DNA of 5,496 nucleotides from a virus (taxonomy: Duplodnaviria > Heunggongvirae > Uroviricota > Caudoviricetes). Location of the stretch: IMG/VR virus record IMGVR_UViG_2713897140_000005; one strand, written 5' to 3'. The notes under the pieces are model-generated. The model was not told the origin of the DNA and searched no databases. It saw nothing but the letters and a program-made list of their open reading frames with translations. The translations under genes and the position numbers were made by a program. Numbering within the stretch: the first letter of the stretch is position 1; every line of letters starts with the position of its first letter. Below, in pieces: positions 1 to 5,496 of the stretch.

Positions 1-333
1 AATTGCCGTACTCAACGCTTCCTGCGCCGCCAGTAATGCACGGCGTTCCAGGGTATCGAAGATGCAGAGTCGGTGACGCAGCTCGCGCGGAAGAATTGCC
101 AGAACCGCAGGGATCAGTTTCTGAATTTTTTCCCTTTGCGCTTTCGTTTCACCTTTTAACCAACGATGATAGATGTTCTGCTGATTATTCCAGTCCTTGC
201 CTGGTGTCAGAGACAATTCACCTCCCCCCTGGCGCAGATATTCTTCAGTAATTGCGTTAGCGACCCACGCCTGCCCTTTTTCGGCTGCCAGGGCTAACAA
301 CACTGATTCGATGTGCTCATGCCTGATTTTCAT
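1..333 (-). CDS. ydaT: YdaT-like prophage protein (toxin YdaT family); N-terminal 111 codons, 3' end outside the window
   Basis: Found by reading the - strand; absent from the ORF track because it has no stop inside the window. ATG at 333-331, open to position 1, translation MKIRHEHIESVLLALAAEKGQAWVANAITEEYLRQGGGELSLTPGKDWNNQQNIYHRWLKGETKAQREKIQKLIPAVLAILPRELRHRLCIFDTLERRALLAAQEALSTAI. Recognised from memory as the YdaT family of Rac-type prophages. Its start overlaps the stop of the upstream HTH gene (ATGA). Not verifiable without a homology search. Confidence 0.6.
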   Translation of the reverse strand, partial: MKIRHEHIESVLLALAAEKGQAWVANAITEEYLRQGGGELSLTPGKDWNNQQNIYHRWLKGETKAQREKIQKLIPAVLAILPRELRHRLCIFDTLERRALLAAQEALSTAI

Positions 334-572
334 GAATCAACCGCTCCTATGCTGTTTTCGCTATGCTTACCGTCTGGGGGGAATACATCGTCAAGTCCAC
401 AATGAGCGCCAAGCCGATTAAGGGTAGAAACAATTTTTCTGCACTCCTCTAGTCCAGGGGTACGAAAATTTGCTTCGTAATTTGCCAGTCGGCTTTGTAT
501 CCACCCTAACTGAACAGCAAGTTGTCTTTGAGACAGCCCAAGCTGTTTTCGATATGTTGAAATTTTGTTCAT
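330..572 (-). CDS. ydaS: Cro/YdaS-like helix-turn-helix (XRE-type) DNA-binding protein, 80 aa
   Basis: ORF track 330..572 (-). The N-terminal 45 aa (YRKQLGLSQRQLAVQLGWIQSRLANYE) is a typical XRE/Cro HTH. GGAGG Shine-Dalgarno 7 nt upstream of the ATG at 572. Stop TGA (332-330) overlaps the ATG of the YdaT-like gene. Symbol given by synteny (divergent from the repressor, immediately upstream of ydaT), not by sequence identity. Confidence 0.55.
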   Translation of the reverse strand: MNKISTYRKQLGLSQRQLAVQLGWIQSRLANYEANFRTPGLEECRKIVSTLNRLGAHCGLDDVFPPDGKHSENSIGAVDS

Positions 573-668
573 TGAAAACCTCCGATGACAATTTTAAACA
601 CACCTTGTGTTATATAGTCAAGCTGTTTTGTGTTTTATGTAAATCACGATTCGTGATACAAGGATGCA
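573..668. promoter_or_regulatory. Divergent promoter/operator region between the Cro-like (-) and repressor-like (+) genes
   Basis: 96-bp AT-rich spacer between divergent start codons. Palindrome AACAC-N5-GTGTT at 597-611; perfect 15-bp palindrome ATCACGA-T-TCGTGAT at 643-657; direct repeats TTGTGTT(A/T)TAT at 606-616 and 628-638. Candidate - strand promoter: -35 TTGACT (complement of 615-620) and -10 TTTAAA/TAAAAT (complement of about 592-598), with the 597-611 palindrome in its spacer. No convincing + strand -35/-10 pair could be placed. Confidence 0.5.
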
Positions 669-1088
669 ATGGAAAAAGAAAACGAAAAAATTGCCGCTAG
701 TAGGCTCAATGACAAAATTGCAATGCGTCTTAAAGAGCGCAGGCAGAAGCTTGGTTTATCTCAAGGAAAACTTGCTGAAATCTGCGGATGGACGCAATCG
801 CGTATAGGTAACTATGAGGCGGGCAGCAGAAATGTTGGAGTACATGACGCTGTCGTATTGGGAAAGGCACTTGGCATATCTCCTCCTGAGCTCCTCTTTG
901 GAGAACAGGAATCTTCTGAATTGTGGTTAAATGAATCCCAACGAAAACTTCTTGAGTTGTTTAACCAGCTACCGGGCTCAGAACAACAACGAATGATTGA
1001 GCTATTTGAAGTCCGGCTAAAAGAAATCGATGAGTATGTAGAAAAATATTTGAGAGGCAGGATTAAAGATAATCCCCCACCGGAATAA
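669..1088 (+). CDS. racR: XRE-family HTH transcriptional repressor (RacR-like prophage repressor), 139 aa
   Basis: ORF track 669..1088. HTH motif RRQKLGLSQGKLAEICGWTQSRIGNYEAG in the N-terminal half, with a C-terminal extension. AAGGA 5 nt upstream of the ATG. Divergent from the ydaS/ydaT-like pair, as racR is in Rac. Symbol assigned by synteny and family, not verified identity. An internal ATG at 720 is an alternative start. Confidence 0.6.
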   Translation: MEKENEKIAASRLNDKIAMRLKERRQKLGLSQGKLAEICGWTQSRIGNYEAGSRNVGVHDAVVLGKALGISPPELLFGEQESSELWLNESQRKLLELFNQLPGSEQQRMIELFEVRLKEIDEYVEKYLRGRIKDNPPPE

Positions 1089-1118
1089 TGATCTTGCTAT
1101 CACAGTAATATGCCAATC

Positions 1119-1142
1119 AGCCCGCTATCAGCGGGCTTTTTT
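1119..1142 (+). terminator. Rho-independent terminator downstream of the repressor gene
   Basis: Stem AGCCCGC (1119-1125) / GCGGGCT (1131-1137), 5-nt loop TATCA, followed by a T-run to 1142. Lies 30 nt after the repressor stop codon (1086-1088). Confidence 0.6.
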
Positions 1143-1184
1143 GTAGCATCATCATATGACACCCACCATAAAACACATTACGTG

Positions 1185-1213
1185 TTGACATAAGAAAACA
1201 AATTGTGTTTAAT
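1185..1213 (+). promoter_or_regulatory. Sigma70-like promoter (TTGACA-17-TTTAAT) overlapped by operator-like palindromes
   Basis: -35 TTGACA at 1185-1190, 17-bp spacer, -10 TTTAAT at 1208-1213. Imperfect palindromes AACAC-ATTAC-GTGTT (1172-1186) and AAACA-AATTG-TGTTT (1196-1210) overlap the -35 and -10 and resemble the 597-611 site. Confidence 0.4.
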
Positions 1214-1393
1214 AAGCATATCCAAACAACGCCCCACCAGAGAACGGCAGGACAATACCTCGAGTTATCCAGTCACTGAACAGGGCTAAGTAGCCAGCCT
1301 GAGGCATACGAACATGACGGCAGTTGTTGATTGATACAAAGCGCAGTAGATAAAACGTTCCGCCACCCGGCGTTAAGGGGAAATGGGGTCAAC

Positions 1394-1549
1394 ATGAATA
1401 CTATCGATCTTGGCAACAACGAATCTCTGGTATGTGGCGTGTTTCCCAATCAAGACGGCACATTCACCGCCATGACGTATACCAAAAGCAAAACGTTTAA
1501 AACCGAAGCTGGCGCACGTCGTTGGTTGGGAAGACATTCAGGTGAGTAA
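1394..1549 (+). CDS. Small prophage protein, 51 aa (positionally like the tiny ydaF/ydaG ORFs of Rac)
   Basis: The ORF track entry 1331..1549 begins at a TTG. The first ATG is at 1394 (MNTIDLGNNESLVCGVFPNQDGTFTAMTYTKSKTFKTEAGARRWLGRHSGE), with a G-rich stretch 5-9 nt upstream. Stop TAA at 1547-1549 lies 1 nt before the next ATG. Function unknown. Confidence 0.5.
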   Translation: MNTIDLGNNESLVCGVFPNQDGTFTAMTYTKSKTFKTEAGARRWLGRHSGE

Positions 1550-1550
1550 A

Positions 1551-1754
1551 ATGAACGAGACAGAATTAAAACACGTTATCGCTCTACTCCTAGAAGATGC
1601 AAAACGCCTCCAGCAACTGGAGCCAAATGCAGGCACTGGGGCACGCATCTGGCTGGCTAAAGAAGCGCTGGAATCTGGCGATTATGATAGCGAAGAAGCC
1701 TTCTACAAAGCAGAAGGCCGTGCAGGATATTCACCGGGTCTTGGCGGGGTATAA
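1551..1754 (+). CDS. Hypothetical small protein, 67 aa
   Basis: ORF track 1542..1754 starts at a GTG. ATG at 1551 is preceded by AGGTGAG (1540-1546), a good Shine-Dalgarno. Translation MNETELKHVIALLLEDAKRLQQLEPNAGTGARIWLAKEALESGDYDSEEAFYKAEGRAGYSPGLGGV. The 3' end overlaps the convergent 98-aa gene by 24 bp. Confidence 0.4.
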   Translation: MNETELKHVIALLLEDAKRLQQLEPNAGTGARIWLAKEALESGDYDSEEAFYKAEGRAGYSPGLGGV

Positions 1755-2027
1755 ATACCATGCGCATTGACTGAATTCGCAAACAAAAACAGACGCGCGA
1801 TACCCGGATAGTCGGTCTGCATAGTCAGATATCTGGCTGCGAATTTGATAAATATCACCGCCCTTTTCGAAAACATAAGTTCCGTCCGGGAGTTGATTAT
1901 ACGAACCATCTCCATGGGGGATCGTTCTCCTGAATCCTAGTGAGAGCATATATTTATGAAGCCCTTCGTAATCCTCTGGCTCAGCATTATATAGTTCTAC
2001 TCTGGCGAGATACGTTGGCATATTCAT
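1731..2027 (-). CDS. Hypothetical 98-aa protein in the sieB-equivalent position; weak pattern-level resemblance to VapD/Cas2-like small nucleases
   Basis: ORF track 1731..2027 (-), MNMPTYLARVELYNAEPEDYEGLHKYMLSLGF.... AAGGAA lies immediately upstream, so the third-codon ATG at 2021 may be the true start. It is transcribed against the flanking + strand genes. The VapD/Cas2 resemblance (strand YLARVEL, helix ending LSLGF, GDGSY, SVFVCEF) is by eye only. Confidence 0.55.
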   Translation of the reverse strand: MNMPTYLARVELYNAEPEDYEGLHKYMLSLGFRRTIPHGDGSYNQLPDGTYVFEKGGDIYQIRSQISDYADRLSGYRASVFVCEFSQCAWYLYPAKTR

Positions 2028-2215
2028 TTCCTTACTGGTTGTGTGAGAACTTCAGTAAAGATACCACCAAAGCCCGGAGGTGGTGAAATAAAACCGGGCA
2101 CAACACGAAGGCGCATTTCCGGTATTCATAAAGAGTCGGTCTTGTCTGTGAAATTTAAATGGTGGGAGTGCGCTTCCGGTTGTAAATAACGACATTGCTG
2201 TGTGAAGTACCAGTT

Positions 2216-2256
2216 GGCGGCATCGGTTTAATTGCTGGCTGATGTCCGCCCTTTTT
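2216..2256 (+). terminator. Candidate intrinsic terminator (+ strand)
   Basis: GC-rich stem GGCGGCATC (2216-2224) / GATG-t-CCGCC (2241-2250) with one bulged T and a 16-nt loop, followed by CTTTTT (2251-2256). The T-run is on the + strand only. Confidence 0.4.
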
Positions 2257-2257
2257 A

Positions 2258-2412
2258 AAGTGAATTTTGTGATGCGGTGAATGCGGCTAAGCGCACGCGG
2301 CACAGTTAAAAGTCATGTTAGTCCTTATTGTTTTGGGTGGGAAAGCCGACTGTAATTGTTAACTGGTTAACGTCACCTGGAGGCACCAGGCACCGCATCA
2401 CAAAATTCACTT
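2258..2412. repeat. Perfect 22-bp inverted repeat flanking a 111-bp spacer
   Basis: Left arm 2258-2279 AAGTGAATTTTGTGATGCGGTG; right arm 2391-2412 CACCGCATCACAAAATTCACTT is its exact reverse complement. The match stops on both sides (2257/2413 and 2280/2390 do not pair). The spacer contains GTTAAC-TG-GTTAAC (2358-2371) and a weak promoter-like TTGTTT-17-TGTAAT (2328-2356). Confidence 0.85.
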
Positions 2413-2533
2413 CGGTGATGAAAGGAAAGAGAAAATGTTGAATGTAGCTATTGAAAACCAGAACGGGTGGAATTATAGTGCACCTGCACCTCATAAAACG
2501 GGTGCCGGGATTAGCACCCCGAAAGTTACTCGA

Positions 2534-2567
2534 GCGCATAACCGCGCTGAAGCGGTTTTTTTATGCG
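2534..2567 (+). terminator. Candidate intrinsic terminator / attenuator hairpin in the leader upstream of the Rha-family gene
   Basis: Inner stem ACCGC (2541-2545) / GCGGT (2552-2556) with loop GCTGAA, followed by 7 T (2556-2562). Outer complementary arms CGCATAA (2535-2541) / TTATGCG (2561-2567). Confidence 0.45.
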
Positions 2568-2591
2568 TAATGCACAGCCACATTCAAATTA

Positions 2592-2669
2592 TGGTGAGGC
2601 GTGCGGGGCAGCCGCAAGGCTGGCCGGGTTCTCGAGTGACCGGTAGTGCTAACCCTGTGCGTCTCACCA
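2592..2669 (+). other. Structured RNA element (long branched hairpin) in the 5' leader of the Rha-family gene
   Basis: 17-bp stem 2592-2608 / 2653-2669 with 14 Watson-Crick pairs plus 3 G-U pairs that exist only in the + strand RNA (they would be C-A on the - strand). It encloses a CAGCC-GCAA-GGCTG hairpin (2609-2622, GNRA loop) and a CCGG...CCGG hairpin (2624-2643). CTCACC (2663-2668) can alternatively pair with GGTGAG at 2693-2698. Confidence 0.4.
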
Positions 2670-2728
2670 CCCATGAGATTAGCACCTCTGCTGGTGAGTT
2701 AATTAACTTATCACTTGAGGATGTCATT

Positions 2729-3274
2729 ATGGCTACTACCCTTTCTCACCCTGACGTAACCATCGAAAATGGTCGCGCCGTCACTACTTCTATTTCGATT
2801 GCTGAGTTTTTTGGCAAGCAGCATCACCATGTTGTTCAAAAAATAGAATCCCTCGAATGTTCTGAACTATTTTTAACCAGCAACTTTTCGCGGGTTAAAT
2901 TCGAACACCGCGGCAATTCTTATAACGCCTACCAAATCACCAAAAACGGCTTCGTTTTCCTGGTGATGGGCTTCACGGGCAAAAAAGCCGCCACATTCAA
3001 GGAAGCCTACATTGCTGAGTTCGACCGCATGGAGGCCGAACTGCGCCAGAATAACACCCCACCTGCTGACAAGATGATTCCGGGTGATGGTCGCACTCTG
3101 GTTGTTCACTTCGACAAATTCGGCAATGTCGAATTCACCGAAACCGTTCCTGATGGCGCACTGGTCTGTACCCTGGAGACTTTCCGGTTTTATCTGGAAA
3201 AACAGGGCTGGACTCTTGTAAACCGGGGCGCAATTAAAAACATGACCGTAGAGCAGTTGCTTTCCTTAAAATAA
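2729..3274 (+). CDS. Rha-family phage regulatory protein, 181 aa
   Basis: MATTLSHPDVTIENGRAVTTSISIAEFFGKQHHHVVQKIESLE... matches the Rha (Phage_pRha) N-terminal signature, and ...GFVFLVMGFTGKKAATFKEAYIAEFDRME is typical of the family. GAGGA lies 7 nt upstream of the ATG at 2729. The ORF track extends the frame to an ATG at 2435 (279 aa, with an AAGGAAAGAG Shine-Dalgarno), but that extension covers the terminator and hairpin above and is unlike a folded domain, so 2729 is preferred. Confidence 0.7.
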   Translation: MATTLSHPDVTIENGRAVTTSISIAEFFGKQHHHVVQKIESLECSELFLTSNFSRVKFEHRGNSYNAYQITKNGFVFLVMGFTGKKAATFKEAYIAEFDRMEAELRQNNTPPADKMIPGDGRTLVVHFDKFGNVEFTETVPDGALVCTLETFRFYLEKQGWTLVNRGAIKNMTVEQLLSLK

Positions 3275-3284
3275 AAATGGAGCT

Positions 3285-3572
3285 ATGGATATGAACCCCA
3301 TGCTTGATTATTGTTTTACACCTGCCCTCAGGCAGACCATCAGTCATACCGGGATTAAAAAATGGCTGTGGAGAATCAGAAAAATTCTCCAGCAAAAAGG
3401 TGACCTGGATTTAATACAATGTGATTACCATCTCTGCAATAAACAGTTTTTACCTGAAAAAGCTTTTACTGGCGAGCTTATTTATATGCATGGAAACATG
3501 ATTGCCAGAAAGAAACGAAAATATTGCAGTGCAGCTTGTGCCGAAAAAGACAAGATGGCACACGAACTTTAA
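3285..3572 (+). CDS. Cys-rich small protein, putative zinc-binding (C-x4-C ... C-x3-C), 95 aa
   Basis: ORF track 3285..3572. Cys pairs in QCDYHLC and YCSAAC, and a basic KKRK patch. GGAG at 3279-3282 is better spaced for the in-frame ATG at 3291, which may be the true start. Positionally equivalent to the small zinc-binding gene (ydaE) upstream of racC-recE in Rac; no sequence identity claimed. Confidence 0.55.
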   Translation: MDMNPMLDYCFTPALRQTISHTGIKKWLWRIRKILQQKGDLDLIQCDYHLCNKQFLPEKAFTGELIYMHGNMIARKKRKYCSAACAEKDKMAHEL

Positions 3573-3646
3573 TTAACTGAATATTCGAAACTGAATTTAT
3601 GCCAGCAATGGCAGGGATTCACTCAACCTTAAAAAAGGAAACAGCA

Positions 3647-3853
3647 ATGAGCATTATTGAATGTGAAATTGAACTTGATGTTATTAACGATTCTCTCGCC
3701 GAATTTAAATGTGGGAATACATTACATAGTTTCATTCAGATTTCCCAAAAAGAAAACGTCACGGTAATTATTGATGACGGTTACGTTCTGGGAACATTTG
3801 ATTGTTGTGTATGTGCCATTAAAGAAATTGCATTACTCACAGCTCGCATTTAA
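3647..3853 (+). CDS. Hypothetical small protein, 68 aa
   Basis: ORF track 3599..3853. The internal ATG at 3647 is preceded by AAGGAA 6 nt upstream, unlike the 3599 ATG. Translation MSIIECEIELDVINDSLAEFKCGNTLHSFIQISQKENVTVIIDDGYVLGTFDCCVCAIKEIALLTARI. No recognisable family. Confidence 0.5.
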   Translation: MSIIECEIELDVINDSLAEFKCGNTLHSFIQISQKENVTVIIDDGYVLGTFDCCVCAIKEIALLTARI

Positions 3854-3857
3854 GAGG

Positions 3858-3886
3858 CTGACAAGAAATACGGTATCAGTTATCAA
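3858..3886 (+). promoter_or_regulatory. Weak candidate promoter upstream of the RecE-like gene
   Basis: CTGACA (3858-3863), 17-bp spacer, TATCAA (3881-3886) in the 113-bp gap before the ATG at 3967. Hexamers are imperfect. Confidence 0.25.
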
Positions 3887-3966
3887 CGACTGAAAGAACT
3901 CTCTCATATCGCATCATCAGTTCGTTTCTTTTATGCAATCTGAATATGAGTTGAGGTTAAAAAACA

Positions 3967-5376
3967 ATGAGCACCGATAAACAAGTTTACCCACTGTATT
4001 ACGAAGCAAAAAATGACAAAGTAAGAAAACGCCTCGGTATTAAAGGCGGTTTTTACTGGGCTGAAGCGAAAAAATTATCCATTGCCATCTCCCGTGGTGC
4101 TGTTGCGATTGACGATGCTGGCTACGATGAAGATGACTTTAAAAAACCTGTTCGCGTCAATTTGCCCGTTGTTGATGACCTCCCACCAGAAGGCGTGTTT
4201 GATACGGAATTCTGCAACCGTTACGAAAAAGGCGGGGAAGATGGCATCACAATGGTATTTATCGCATCTTCTCCCTCTGTTCAGGACAAACCAGCCAGCA
4301 CTGACAATACCAACGTCAACGGCGAAGACATGACAGAAATTGAGGAGAACATGCTCCTGCCAGTTTCCGGTCAGGAACTGCCCATTCGTTGGCTTGCGCA
4401 ACACGGCAGCGAAAAACCGGTAACGCACGTTTCACGCGACGAACTCCAGGCATTACACATTGCTCGGGATGAAGAACTACCGGCTGTTACTGCTCTGGCT
4501 GTTTCGCATAAAACCAGTCTGCTCGACCCGCTGGAGATTCGCGACCTCCACAAACTCGTGCGTGATACTGACAAAGTTTTCCCTAATCCTGGCAATTCAA
4601 ATCTGGGACTGATGACTGCTTTTTTCGAAGCATATCTGGATGCCAACTACACCGATCGCGGTCTGCTGACAAAAGAGTGGATGAAAGGAAATCGTGTTTC
4701 GCGTATCACTCGCACGGCTTCCGGTGCTAATGCTGGCGGCGGGAACCTCACCGATCGCGGCGAAGGTTTCGTCCACGATCTGACGTCGCTGGCGCGCGAC
4801 GTAGCCACTGGCGTACTGGCCCGTTCAATGGACGTGGATATTTATAATCTTCATCCGGCACACGCTAAACGCATTGAGGAAATTATCACTGAAAATAAAC
4901 CGCCCTTTTCTGTTTTCCGCGACAAATTCATCACCATGCCTGGCGGGATGGATTATTCCCGCGCCATCGTGGTTGCGTCAGTGAAAGAAGCACCGATTGG
5001 TATCGAGGTCATCCCCGCGCACGTCACTGAATATCTGAACAAGGTACTGACTGAAACCGATCATGCCAACCCTGATCCGGAAATCGTGGATATTGCCTGC
5101 GGTCGCTCCTCTGCCCCGATGCCGCAGCGTGTAACAGAAGAAGGAAAACAGGATGATGAAGAAAAACCGCAGCCATCTGGCGCAATGGCAGATGAACAGG
5201 CAACGGCTGAAACAATGGAACCGGATGCAACTGAACATCATCAGAACACGCAGCCGCTGGATGCTCAGTCACAGGTAAATTCTGTTGATGGGGGCGGGTC
5301 AGTACTGCGGGTTCCTTGCCAACCGTGTGTGTGGAGAGAAGCTGCCACAGGTGTACCGAGCTCTGGGGATGGATAA
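3967..5376 (+). CDS. recE: RecE (exodeoxyribonuclease VIII) N-terminal-region homologue, 469-aa ORF; apparently truncated or chimeric, C-terminal nuclease domain not encoded in this frame
   Basis: ORF track 3967..5376, with GAGG 9 nt upstream. Segments such as [50 protein letters not shown] and the acidic [15 protein letters not shown] tract match my recollection of the non-catalytic N-terminal part of Rac RecE (866 aa in K-12). No Walker motif. The last about 28 codons ([28 protein letters not shown]) look like out-of-frame junk. Identity is from memory and needs alignment. Confidence 0.55.
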
Positions 5377-5496
5377 ACCGGAACCAGTGGCGAAGGTGTG
5401 CTATGCACAAATGGTGACGCAGCTCCTGAGTCGTGACCCGTTCGAATGCGTGCTGTGTGGCGGCCGGATGGTATACCGCCGGGCCATCGCGGGACT
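5369..5496 (+). CDS. Cys-rich (zinc-ribbon-like) protein, N-terminal fragment; continues beyond the window
   Basis: Frame is open from 5279 to the window end, so it is not in the ORF track. ATG at 5369 overlaps the RecE-like stop (ATGGATAA); an earlier in-frame ATG at 5288 gives [70 protein letters not shown]-x2-C and further Cys suggest a zinc ribbon. Identity unknown (transposase-like or HNH-like are guesses). Confidence 0.4.

Follow-up and report, generated by a model that had tools for sequence, protein, structure and literature searches.

Why do two intrinsic terminators stand in the path of rightward transcription towards the Rha and recE-like genes of a lambdoid prophage? We examined this in a 5,496-nucleotide stretch of DNA from a virus of the Caudoviricetes (the window). 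A sequence-only reading had noticed two terminator-like hairpins with T-runs on the + strand, had placed both between the immunity genes and a Rha-recE operon, and had proposed that they hold this operon silent. Both hairpins were found, fold as described, and are conserved in relatives. That rightward terminators precede the Rha and recE-like genes, and that expression beyond them is conditional, was correct. The location holds for hairpin 1; hairpin 2 lies inside the Rha ORF that RefSeq annotates. We propose, with fair confidence, that the hairpins are the ends of a KilS/DicF-like and an IsrK/seqA-like small RNA gene, and that a known type of RNA immunity switch stands here before an antirepressor-like gene.

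Taken as a whole, positions 2160-2730 are probably a stack of known RNA elements that forms the leader of the early rightward operon in a decaying Rac-like prophage (Table 1). The window differs from an E. coli O121 chromosome at 2 of 5,290 positions, and its top protein match is from Shigella boydii. We considered a Qin origin (dicA-ydfABC) for the left part and dropped it: the gene order fits Qin and Rac alike, and the DNA is nearest to Rac. At least 80% of the 600-nt arrangement occurs as a single contiguous match in 385 of 5,426 complete E. coli genomes (~7%). The prophage is degraded, with an IS91-family fragment and a nonsense mutation, and the C4/IsrK circuit described below may no longer operate in it.

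Table 1. Features of the window that bear on the two terminators
Feature	Positions	Strand	Basis
Candidate early rightward promoter, TTGACA-17-TTTAAT	1185..1213	+	read from sequence
KilS-homologous sRNA (DicF-class)	2162..2256	+	homology to K-12 kilS (b4833)
Long hairpin, probable RNase III site	2258..2412 (155 nt)	+	inverted repeat and homology
Shine-Dalgarno AAGGA (2422-2426) and ATG 2435, start of the 'Ash' frame	2422..2437	+	sequence
ORF 'Rha family phage regulatory protein', 279 aa	2435..3274	+	RefSeq annotation
Candidate internal sigma-70-like promoter, TTGAAA-17-TATAGT	2451..2479	+	10/12 matches, the window's best promoter-like site
IsrK / P4-seqA-type RNA	2486..2562	+	Rfam RF01394
Outer helix, GCGCAT/ATGCGT	2534-2539 / 2563-2568	+	folds and between-clade covariation
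C4 / P4-CI-type antisense RNA	2587..2674	+	Rfam RF01695
Downstream C4 targets and Rha start	2675..2731	+	duplexes, covariation
a2, ATTAGCAC	2678-2685	+	pairs with a'
b2, TCACTTGAG	2711-2719	+	pairs with b'

Hairpin 1, the KilS-like RNA and the long hairpin

We took as an intrinsic terminator a G+C-rich stem-loop followed within 0-2 nt by at least five T residues on the transcribed strand, and both hairpins have this anatomy on the + strand. In hairpin 1, a 5' arm (2216-2228) and a 3' arm (2237-2250) form 13 pairs with one bulge around an 8-nt loop, followed by C2251 and five T residues (2252-2256). The 56 nt that contain it (2201-2256) fold at -20.3 kcal/mol (z = -2.7 against shuffled sequences). 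A consensus scan returned 13 terminator-like sites in the window, both hairpins among them, against 6.8 +/- 2.8 in shuffled sequences; with a count so weakly above chance, conservation is the stronger evidence. At the position of hairpin 1, a hairpin with four to six T residues is present in 40 of 42 distinct relatives, with stem sequences that differ.

By its sequence and place, hairpin 1 is the putative 3' end of a homologue of KilS, the Rac small RNA of K-12 and a positional relative of DicF. The small RNA shares 85 of 103 aligned columns with K-12 kilS, and 45 of its first 47 nt are identical; it diverges from KilS over ~15 nt ahead of the stem and within the loop. It also occupies the same genomic place, after ydaF/ydaG-type genes and directly before a long hairpin, with collinear flanks and a terminator of the same type. 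KilS itself has been verified by Northern blot, and its annotated 3' end falls at the T-run (PMC8175672). The 5' end would lie at 2162, and the DNA upstream of that point is a poor sigma-70 match. Membership of the DicF family proper was rejected: the window RNA scores 28.6 bits with the Rfam DicF model (RF00039), below the gathering score of 48, as compared with 39.1 for K-12 KilS and 76.7 for genuine dicF, and its single-stranded part is unlike that of DicF.

The long hairpin that follows is closed by a perfect 22-bp stem (2258-2279 with 2391-2412, an inverted repeat of 100% complementarity), carries a conserved apical hairpin (CCTGG-AGGCA-CCAGG) and has a minimum free energy of -62.1 kcal/mol (z = -5.0). 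It is identical at 149 of 159 positions to the element after kilS in Rac and at 130 of 170 to the element after dicF in Qin; in the K-12 annotation kilS and dicF each lie directly 5' of the homologous long hairpin. As described for Qin (PMC5069750), a 53-nt DicF ends at the terminator and a 72-nt form arises when RNase III cuts the full-length dicBF mRNA, which passes through that terminator; the longer form ends 19 nt past the terminator, that is, inside the long stem. Having a near-perfect stem of at least 20 bp that is homologous to the Qin element, the long hairpin of the window is a probable RNase III processing site by analogy. Its score with the Rfam STnc100 model is 34.3 bits, below the gathering score of 47, and the Qin and Rac elements also fall under the threshold; we therefore call it related to STnc100 and not a member. 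As the DicF and STnc100 scores are both below gathering, hairpin 1 and the long hairpin were placed by homology to the K-12 loci. The unit of small RNA, terminator and long hairpin was found at 124 related loci, where it precedes dicB in 82, kilR in 22 and an Ash-IsrK-C4-Rha module in 11. The cargo of the window also differs from that of Rac and Qin, the long hairpin being followed by Ash-IsrK-C4-Rha here and by kilR or dicB there.

Hairpin 2 within an IsrK and C4 immunity module

Hairpin 2 ends a match to the IsrK family that covers model positions 1-77 of 77 (RF01394; score 68.5 bits, gathering score 50, E = 1.3e-13); an overlapping match to the Rfam c4-a1b1 model scores 23.8 bits. The RNA comprises a 5' hairpin, the a1 hairpin (loop 2510-2517), the b1 site (2525-2534) and the terminator (2540-2557). 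The stem of the latter, AACCGC/GCGGTT (2540-2545 with 2552-2557), has six pairs around a 6-nt loop, runs into seven T residues at 2556-2562 and folds in its 31-nt context at -11.1 kcal/mol (z = -2.6). The inner stem is paired in 100% of cells across 21 distinct sequences, with compensatory changes at 2 of 5 pairs, and the hairpin is present between b1 and C4 in all of 62 module configurations. To judge from sequence and family, hairpin 2 is the predicted terminator of an IsrK/P4-seqA-type RNA. Around it an outer helix can form in read-through RNA only, since it encloses the terminator and the U-tract. This helix covaries between clades (CAT/ATG, CAC/GTG, GACATA/TATGTC, GATACA/TGTATC), and a formal count of its pairs, with 71% of cells paired, is weaker and informative in part only, the clades aligning out of register.

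The internal promoter-like site would put the start of this RNA near 2486, and it ends 7 nt before isrK model position 1. Its -10 element, TATA(G/T)T, aligns across Gifsy-1, P4 and O157, which makes the site a candidate analogue of PisrK and of P4 PLE.

Beyond hairpin 2 lies a second full-length family match, to the C4 antisense RNA, which covers model positions 1-87 of 87 (RF01695; score 78.6 bits, gathering score 45, E = 8.8e-15). This RNA has a minimum free energy of -46.9 kcal/mol (z = -4.15) and loop cores b' (2631-2640) and a' (2646-2652). Mature C4 of P1 and P4 is cut from a longer precursor by RNase P. The loops of the window C4 are complementary to two pairs of sites. Upstream, within IsrK, a' pairs with a1 at -16.8 kcal/mol and b' with b1 at -17.7 kcal/mol, as expected of an IsrK RNA adjacent to C4. 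Downstream, a' pairs with a2 at -11.2 kcal/mol and b' with b2 at -16.7 kcal/mol, and b2 overlaps the Shine-Dalgarno sequence GAGGA (2717-2721), which stands 7 nt before ATG 2729, so that the ribosome-binding site is itself a C4 target. Across 54 distinct modules with many loop specificities, a1/a'/a2 and b1/b'/b2 show three-way covariation, and a loop paired with its cognate target is 5-8 kcal/mol more stable than one paired with a non-cognate target (mean for b' with b2, -17.3 against -9.2 kcal/mol; for b' with b1, -14.0 against -7.4 kcal/mol). The sampled modules comprise at least 18 a-type and ~30 b-type specificities, combined in many different pairings.

One close characterized counterpart is IsrK-orf45-AnrP of Gifsy-1 in Salmonella, where the elements come in the same order; Gifsy-1, P4 and O157 are alignable throughout. 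The shared order runs from the -10 element through IsrK with a1 and b1, a Rho-independent terminator, an AUG at the 5' edge of a C4-like RNA, and a2 and b2 over a Shine-Dalgarno sequence to an antirepressor-like gene. In Gifsy-1 some IsrK transcripts read through the terminator and yield an isrK-orf45-anrP mRNA, from which the C4-like RNA (STnc1160) is processed and on which orf45 is translated (PMC4825925). The Gifsy-1 module differs in lying in the late region, after the antiterminator gene antQ, and not in an early-left operon, and its specificity loops are unlike those of the window. Its orf45 and anrP overlap by ATGA, whereas the window frame continues in phase into Rha and extends back, still open, to an ATG that precedes the IsrK promoter.

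The immunity region of P4 (PLE, seqA, CI RNA, seqC, eta/kil) likewise gives isrK and C4 matches in the same order and spacing. These matches lie under one long ORF, the old 'cI ORF', which is modelled by Pfam Phage_ASH; the promoter is internal to that ORF and in-frame starts are nested within it. According to the summary in PMC10111431, the P4 transcript from the internal promoter is terminated and processed to CI, and full-length translation of RNA from an upstream promoter prevents this termination. P4 differs in controlling replication genes, in using a Rho-dependent site (timm) and in an insertion of ~80 nt within the 5' part of CI, whereas the window element is a lambdoid Rac-like prophage with Rha as the C-terminal domain. 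The immI region of P1 and P7 (a1 b1 - c4 - a2 b2 - icd - ant) shares a C4-family RNA with two loops and site pairs on both sides, the downstream pair lying over the ribosome-binding site of the first gene before the antirepressor. There, loop changes set the specificity of P1/P7 heteroimmunity (Citron & Schuster 1990, as cited in PMC8198154). In the window, in contrast, icd is absent, the target ribosome-binding site is that of the Rha-type protein itself, and an intrinsic terminator stands between b1 and C4.

A reading frame open across the RNA genes

RefSeq annotates one CDS over this module and no ncRNA. The frame that begins at ATG 2435 runs in phase through the IsrK and C4 genes into Rha: an Ash-frame leader (aa 1-98) overlies the two RNA genes and the Rha domain follows, with Pfam matches to Phage_ASH at aa 14-105 and to Phage_pRha at aa 117-200. 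Further in-frame ATGs are nested at 2570, 2591 and 2729, of which ATG 2591 takes the position of the first AUG of Gifsy-1 orf45. A single frame thus spans IsrK, terminator and C4 from a start upstream of the internal promoter, as in the nested genes of the P4 eta type. One paper equates Pfam Ash (PF10554) with P4 epsilon (PMC8628076); we did not adopt this, since PF10554 matches the old P4 'cI ORF' and a direct Pfam scan assigns P4 epsilon to PF25738.

We advance, tentatively and with the balance slightly against it, the reading that the 'Rha family' gene of Rac-like lambdoid prophages is a dual-use gene, with 98 codons kept open solely so that ribosomes can override the internal promoter, the terminator and C4. 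Among 165 variants of the hypervariable loops the Ash frame has no stops, against 53 and 41 in the other two frames, and over all distinct stop contexts it has 2 against 79 and 80; the loop variants are phylogenetically non-independent, and some stops of the other frames lie in semi-conserved loop flanks. Such a stop-free frame suggests that translation across the RNA genes matters. The leader ORF also varies in length within the clade by multiples of three only (294, 297 or 300 nt), 66 of 75 modules have an in-frame ATG just upstream of the IsrK promoter region, 51-102 nt ahead of the 5' end of IsrK, and the Shine-Dalgarno sequence and ATG 2435 follow the long stem after ~22 nt, a spacing similar to that of the dicB and kilR starts.

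These observations weigh against an alternative that we consider unlikely though still worth serious attention: that the RNA elements are real and the 2435 frame is untranslated, with hairpin 2 leaky as in Gifsy-1, Rha made from 2729 (or 2591) under C4/IsrK control, and the long 'Rha' ORF and the Pfam Ash family both arising because conserved RNA genes were annotated as protein. The leader frame could be open merely through constraint on the RNA sequence, and several features agree with this. The leader is predicted to be unstructured, AlphaFold2 giving aa 1-106 a pLDDT of ~25 where the Rha domain, in the same run, has 70-84; the alignment was shallow (23 sequences, at least 76% identical), so the leader value is meaningful relative to the Rha domain only. 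Amino-acid variation in the leader falls exactly at the RNA specificity loops, and in the 181-aa product of the 2729 start the match to TIGR02681 (Rha) begins at residue 8. In P4 the 'cI ORF' is not known to be needed as a protein, and the immunity factor is an RNA. In the largest clade (51 modules), moreover, the Ash frame does not continue in phase into the downstream gene, which confines the in-frame fusion with Rha to the clade of the window. Against the untranslated frame, in addition to the stop, length and start patterns, Gifsy-1 translates orf45, which corresponds to part of it (PMC4825925), and for P4 eta translation across CI and seqA has been described (PMC10111431). The converse possibility, that 2435-3274 is an ordinary coding gene, the RNA-family matches are spurious and hairpin 2 is a chance structure, agrees with the single RefSeq CDS and with the Pfam and PHROGs protein families that cover the N-terminal part. 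We judge it very improbable in view of two full-length covariance-model matches well above their gathering scores, the three-way loop/target covariation, the compensatory change in the terminator, the N-terminal part without a predicted fold and homologues that have been characterized experimentally (PMC4825925).

The remaining alternative is the barrier first proposed from the sequence, in which two efficient terminators in series insulate the Rha and recE-like genes, and these stay silent, as recET does in K-12, until an sbcA-type rearrangement or a nut/put factor intervenes. Canonical terminator anatomy on the correct strand at both sites, the strength of hairpin 1 and the silence of the Rac early operon in lysogens all speak for it, and since both hairpins are conserved, termination has been selected at both sites. 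We nevertheless find it improbable, because each hairpin is already explained as the 3' end of a small RNA gene of a known family, and homologous terminators are documented to be leaky in characterized systems (PMC4825925; PMC5069750). When racR is lowered in K-12 Rac, kilR rises more than 70-fold and ydaF/ydaG ~40-fold, and these genes flank the KilS terminator on opposite sides (PMC6765115). Downstream of the early promoter, antitermination of the lambda N/nut kind would be marked by boxA followed by a boxB hairpin, and that of the HK022 kind by paired put stem-loops. A pattern search for nut-like sites gave a negative result: boxA (CGCTCTTA-like, at most one mismatch) has no match on the + strand after 1213, the whole window holds 2 boxA-like matches against 3.1 expected, which is not above chance, and no lambda N-like gene was recognised in the window by Pfam and PHROGs protein-family searches. 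Antitermination may apply here in one sense only, that translation from 2435 may suppress hairpin 2 in the manner of P4 eta. A silent yet functional recE is unlikely as well, because an IS91-family fragment truncates the recE-like ORF at 5290. We therefore return to the reading with which we began, in which the two terminators are most likely small-RNA-forming, leaky or conditional stops and not the primary off-switch.

Proposed control of the early operon and what it means

The chief off-switches that the sequence points to are a RacR/DicA-like repressor, whose operator/promoter repeat is duplicated, and the C4 antisense RNA, which would cover the ribosome-binding site of Rha. The candidate early promoter sits within the right arm of a 46-nt inverted repeat (1167-1212, from a repeat search) that mirrors the divergent promoter/operator region at 594-639, and by gene order its position matches that of the Qin promoter which, downstream of dicA, serves the ydfA-dicF-dicB operon; this placement would make it the promoter of the early rightward operon. 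Nearby, a match to Trp_leader (1058-1144) was set aside, since the model fits the terminator of the repressor gene by chance.

We propose that some transcripts, begun close by or at the early promoter under repressor control, would stop at hairpin 1 and yield the KilS-like small RNA. The remainder would continue into the long hairpin, where RNase III, to judge from the Qin homologue, would cut the 22-bp stem and part the small RNA from the downstream message. An IsrK-type RNA would be made from the promoter-like site within the annotated Rha ORF and end at hairpin 2, and transcripts that pass hairpin 2 would carry the C4/CI-type antisense RNA. Pairing of the C4 loops with a1 and b1 inside IsrK, and with a2 and b2 at the Shine-Dalgarno sequence of the 2729 start, would block translation of the antirepressor-like gene and hence probably transcription beyond it, following the logic of P1 immI, P4 and Gifsy-1. 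Transcripts that derive from upstream may instead be translated from ATG 2435 through IsrK, the terminator and C4 into Rha, and the translating ribosome would prevent both hairpin 2 and the C4 pairings. Once the operon was derepressed, immunity would then no longer affect its expression, which is the behaviour described for P4 eta. We infer this course of events, from the 5' and 3' ends of the transcripts and the efficiency of termination to RNase III cleavage and translational override, by analogy with the systems compared above.

Our analysis is chiefly a correction: an apparent pair of barrier terminators is better read as stacked known RNAs, namely a KilS/DicF-class RNA, an RNase III hairpin, an IsrK/seqA RNA and a C4/CI RNA, which are unannotated in RefSeq here and partly hidden within a CDS. 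For annotators, the point is that many 'Rha/Ash' proteins have an N-terminal 'Ash' part that lies over two RNA genes and is predicted to lack structure. For students of prophage induction, the covariation of C4 loops with their target pairs, in many combinations, offers a ready catalogue of immunity types, alongside a stop-free frame over RNA genes. If the dual-use reading is true, ribosomes arriving on transcripts begun at the derepressed early promoter would disable termination and RNA immunity alike, and the Pfam 'Ash domain' would be the footprint of this override device and not a folded domain. In that case lambdoid prophages would employ the logic of P4 eta/kil as a general device, diversified combinatorially.

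The two terminators and their RNA loci

The two terminator-like hairpins that were noted between the immunity genes and Rha are parts of already described RNA families or loci. That they are present on the + strand with T-runs, at the positions given by the sequence-only reading, is borne out by sequence, folds, and scan. The 56 nt containing the upstream hairpin (hairpin 1; 2201-2256) fold at -20.3 kcal/mol (z = -2.7), and a 31-nt context of the downstream one (hairpin 2) folds at -11.1 kcal/mol (z = -2.6). A consensus scan returned 13 terminator-like sites in the window versus 6.8 +/- 2.8 in shuffles, so the site count is weak evidence, and conservation rather than number of sites is the decisive test.

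Judged by homology, hairpin 1 is the 3' end of a KilS/DicF-class sRNA. In the K-12 annotation, the sRNA kilS (b4833) has sieB and kilR as its neighbours in Rac, and dicF is flanked in Qin by ydfC and dicB. Aligned over its full length with 2162-2256, KilS is identical in 85 of 103 columns, including 45 of the first 47 nt, and its annotated 3' end in K-12 is the T-run of the hairpin homologous to hairpin 1. KilS has been verified by Northern blot (PMC8175672). The Rfam DicF model scores 39.1 bits on KilS and 76.7 on true dicF at the K-12 loci; on 2201-2251 it scores 28.6 bits, under the threshold of 48, and we therefore reject DicF membership and do not file the window sRNA under that family. 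Relatives of hairpin 1 were collected from viral contigs, where a scan looked for the apex conserved in the long hairpin, a 155-nt element that follows hairpin 1. Of 42 distinct variants, 40 have a hairpin of -12 to -24 kcal/mol with T4-6 directly 5' of the conserved AAAGTGAATTTTGTG. The stems vary (GGCGG/CCGCC, GGTGG/CCACC, GGCGGG/CCCGCC, besides others that are shorter or longer), and the single-stranded parts 5' of the hairpin are of several different kinds.

The long hairpin itself has an MFE of -62.1 kcal/mol (z = -5.0) and matches the elements after kilS in Rac (149/159 identical) and after dicF in Qin (130/170). The 53-nt DicF ends at a Rho-independent terminator, and a 72-nt form is an RNase III product of full-length dicBF mRNA (PMC5069750); the additional 19 nt end within the 5' arm of the 22-bp stem. 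The Qin terminator is therefore read through and the stem is an RNase III site, and by analogy both read-through and cutting of the stem would be expected in the window. The gene or genes after the long hairpin, its cargo, lie at a similar distance in related loci and are dicB in 82, kilR in 22, and a window-type module in 11. The apex (2374-2389, CACCTGGAGGCACCAG), a CCTGG/CCAGG stem with an AGGCA loop, does not vary between loci with dicB, kilR, or Rha as cargo (L005-L124), whereas the element's middle part is exchanged completely from one type to another; at the apex position, Rfam STnc100, a model based on Salmonella, shows CCGGG/CCCGG. In one related contig (locus L042), about 80 nt past the long hairpin, the module stops just after the IsrK start, with N at the junction and unrelated sequence beyond, which looks like an insertion or assembly break.

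Features of the window and their strands
Feature	Position	Strand	Remark
ydaT gene tail	1-333	-	
Cro-like HTH gene	330-572	-	
RacR/DicA-like HTH repressor	669-1088	+	terminator 1119-1137
Candidate early rightward promoter	1185-1213	+	TTGACA-17-TTTAAT; inside right arm of 46-nt repeat
DUF1391 gene (ydaF/ydfA type)	1394-1549	+	
ydaG-like ORF	1551-1754	+	partial pseudogene per RefSeq
98-aa ORF, unannotated	1731-2027	-	in place of sieB of Rac K-12
RNA block	about 2160-2730	+	
Hairpin 1	2216-2228 / 2237-2250	+	then C and T5 (2252-2256)
Long hairpin, 155 nt	2258-2279 / 2391-2412 (closing stem)	+	perfect 22-bp stem; directly 3' of hairpin 1
Outer helix	2534-2539 / 2563-2568	+	around terminator and U-tract
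Hairpin 2	2540-2545 / 2552-2557	+	AACCGC / GCGGTT; seven T at 2556-2562
C4 a' loop core	2646-2652		complementary to a1 (2510-2517) and a2 (2678-2685)
C4 b' loop	2631-2640		complementary to b1 (2525-2534) and b2 (2711-2719)
Rha, YdaE-family gene, small ORF, RecE-family ORF	3' of RNA block	+	

An IsrK-C4 immunity module

Hairpin 2 forms the terminator of an RNA of IsrK/seqA type, and this RNA belongs to a C4 immunity module. Rfam isrK (2486-2562; 68.5 bits, threshold 50) and C4 (2587-2674; 78.6 bits, threshold 45) both match over their full length, and c4-a1b1 gives a weak match overlapping IsrK. The strongest promoter-like site in the window, TTGAAA-17-TATAGT (2451-2479), ends 7 nt ahead of the first position of the IsrK model. 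The C4 RNA loops a' and b' are each complementary to an upstream (a1, b1) and a downstream (a2, b2) target site, and the b2 site shares bases with GAGGA (2717-2721), the Shine-Dalgarno of ATG 2729.

A second scan yielded 75 distinct modules from several genomic contexts, whose a and b sites have many specificities and covary three ways. Across 54 distinct triples, cognate pairing was stronger than non-cognate for a' with a1 (-17.4 versus -11.0 kcal/mol) and a2 (-12.7 versus -8.1), and for b' with b1 (-14.0 versus -7.4) and b2 (-17.3 versus -9.2). The 75 modules (loci L125-L238, viral contigs), homologous to 2486-2730, hold 18 a1 and 39 b1 variants in many pairings. This variety suggests that RNA immunity comes in a large number of types, spread over several promoter and cargo contexts.

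In all configurations a terminator of the hairpin 2 type, with T5-7, stands between b1 and C4, and its stem changes are compensatory (CCGC/GCGG, GACGC/GCGTC, ACACGC/GCGTGT). Among 21 distinct sequences, Gifsy-1 and P4 included, 100% of inner-stem cells are paired, with double-sided changes at 2 of 5 pairs in 8 sequences each. The outer helix covaries between clades (CAT/ATG, CAC/GTG, GACATA/TATGTC) and can only form in read-through RNA. Through its overlap with the end of b1, this helix may couple C4 pairing to what becomes of the read-through transcript.

The window can be aligned throughout with the Gifsy-1 isrK locus and the P4 immunity region. In P4, isrK (seqA) and then C4 (CI) match in the same order as here. 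The third relative is P1/P7 immI (PMC8198154), a system reportedly described by Citron and Schuster (1990). In Gifsy-1, part of the transcripts pass the IsrK terminator to give the isrK-orf45-anrP mRNA, which is processed to a stable RNA, STnc1160, and orf45 is translated and coupled to the antirepressor-like AnrP (PMC4825925). STnc1160 is the homologue of C4, and the first AUG of orf45 corresponds to ATG 2591.

Decay of the prophage and probable repressor control

The sequence-only reading also suggested that both hairpins may act as a barrier that keeps Rha-recE off, in the manner of recET silence in K-12 and its activation by sbcA. The hairpins are confirmed and the interpretation is supported in part; this analogy is not supported, given the evidence on the repressor, nut sites, recE, and decay. 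When racR was lowered, RNA-seq recorded increases of more than 70-fold for kilR, ydaC, and ralA and of about 40-fold for ydaF, ydaG, ydaE, and racC (PMC6765115), so genes before and after the KilS terminator and the long hairpin respond together. From this joint response, the repressor is the likely switch. On either side of the repressor gene lies one arm of a 46-nt inverted repeat (594-639 / 1167-1212; 74% complementary), which, from its sequence, is probably an operator/promoter region in duplicate, serving divergent cro/repressor promoters and an early rightward promoter for which the site at 1185-1213 is the likely candidate. A search for a nut-like antitermination element, which that reading had called for, found no boxA/nut-like site 3' of the early promoter in the window.

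Over 1-5290 only two bases separate the window from a Rac-like prophage in E. coli O121 strain 201805972, and among protein hits for the Rha ORF the best comes from Shigella boydii. At 5290 a fragment of an IS91-family transposase begins and cuts the RecE-like ORF short; the reference O121 copy is likewise annotated incomplete. Relative to that reference, a G-to-T change at 3851 makes a TAA stop out of GAA in the small ORF ahead of recE. The prophage is decaying. With this stop, the ORF that RefSeq names 'DNA breaking-rejoining protein' has 84 aa instead of 114, and the other difference is at position 5245. The last 206 bases (5291-5496) are not Rac DNA and share 97% identity with a transposase gene of the IS91 family that is carried mostly by large plasmids. 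The 98-aa ORF is antisense to the early operon, its 3' end overlapping the ydaG-like ORF; it matches phrog_8894 (E = 1e-37) and, under the curated cut-off, NCBIfam YmfI_phage. In 385 of 5426 complete E. coli genomes a single contiguous match covers at least 80% of 2160-2760, so the arrangement is common.

An open frame across the RNA genes

For 2435-3274, RefSeq gives a single 279-aa Rha-family protein and lists no ncRNA. Its first 98 codons (2435-2728) overlie the IsrK-type and C4-type RNA genes, a region modelled in translation by Pfam Phage_ASH (PF10554) and several PHROGs. Within this ORF, Phage_pRha covers aa 117-200 and Phage_ASH aa 14-105, exactly over IsrK and C4. The P4 match of PF10554 is to the old 'cI ORF', which overlies the CI RNA, and the true epsilon protein belongs to another family. 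AlphaFold2 gives aa 1-106 a pLDDT of about 25 without secondary structure, and the Rha domain 70-84 (one run), which marks the Ash leader, in this model, as not a folded domain.

The Ash frame, which in the window starts at ATG 2435, stays open in 73 of 74 modules over a stretch that begins ahead of the IsrK 5' end and extends past C4. Distinct stop contexts number 2 in this frame versus 79 and 80 in the others (62 distinct sequences), and 165 variants of six hypervariable loops contain no stops in it versus 53 and 41. In the window's clade, the leader from ATG 2435 to the Rha ATG measures 294, 297, or 300 nt. Of 75 modules, 66 have an in-frame ATG 51-102 nt 5' of where IsrK begins; often this ATG has a Shine-Dalgarno or closely follows an upstream stop codon. 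In the largest clade the frame is out of phase with the downstream gene, and the Rha fusion is therefore specific to the window's clade.

The open frame and upstream start match the description of P4 eta. As summarized from Forti et al. 1999 in PMC10111431, transcripts from a promoter internal to eta undergo termination and processing to CI, and read-through yields Kil, a shorter nested product; full-length Eta is made, in that summary, only from an upstream promoter, and its translation prevents termination. We propose that transcripts from the derepressed early promoter would be translated from 2435, the ribosome overriding hairpin 2 and the C4 pairings, and that transcripts from the internal promoter would be untranslated and mostly end at hairpin 2. 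The evidence that the frame is kept open across the RNA genes in lambdoid prophages is the one point with some novelty.
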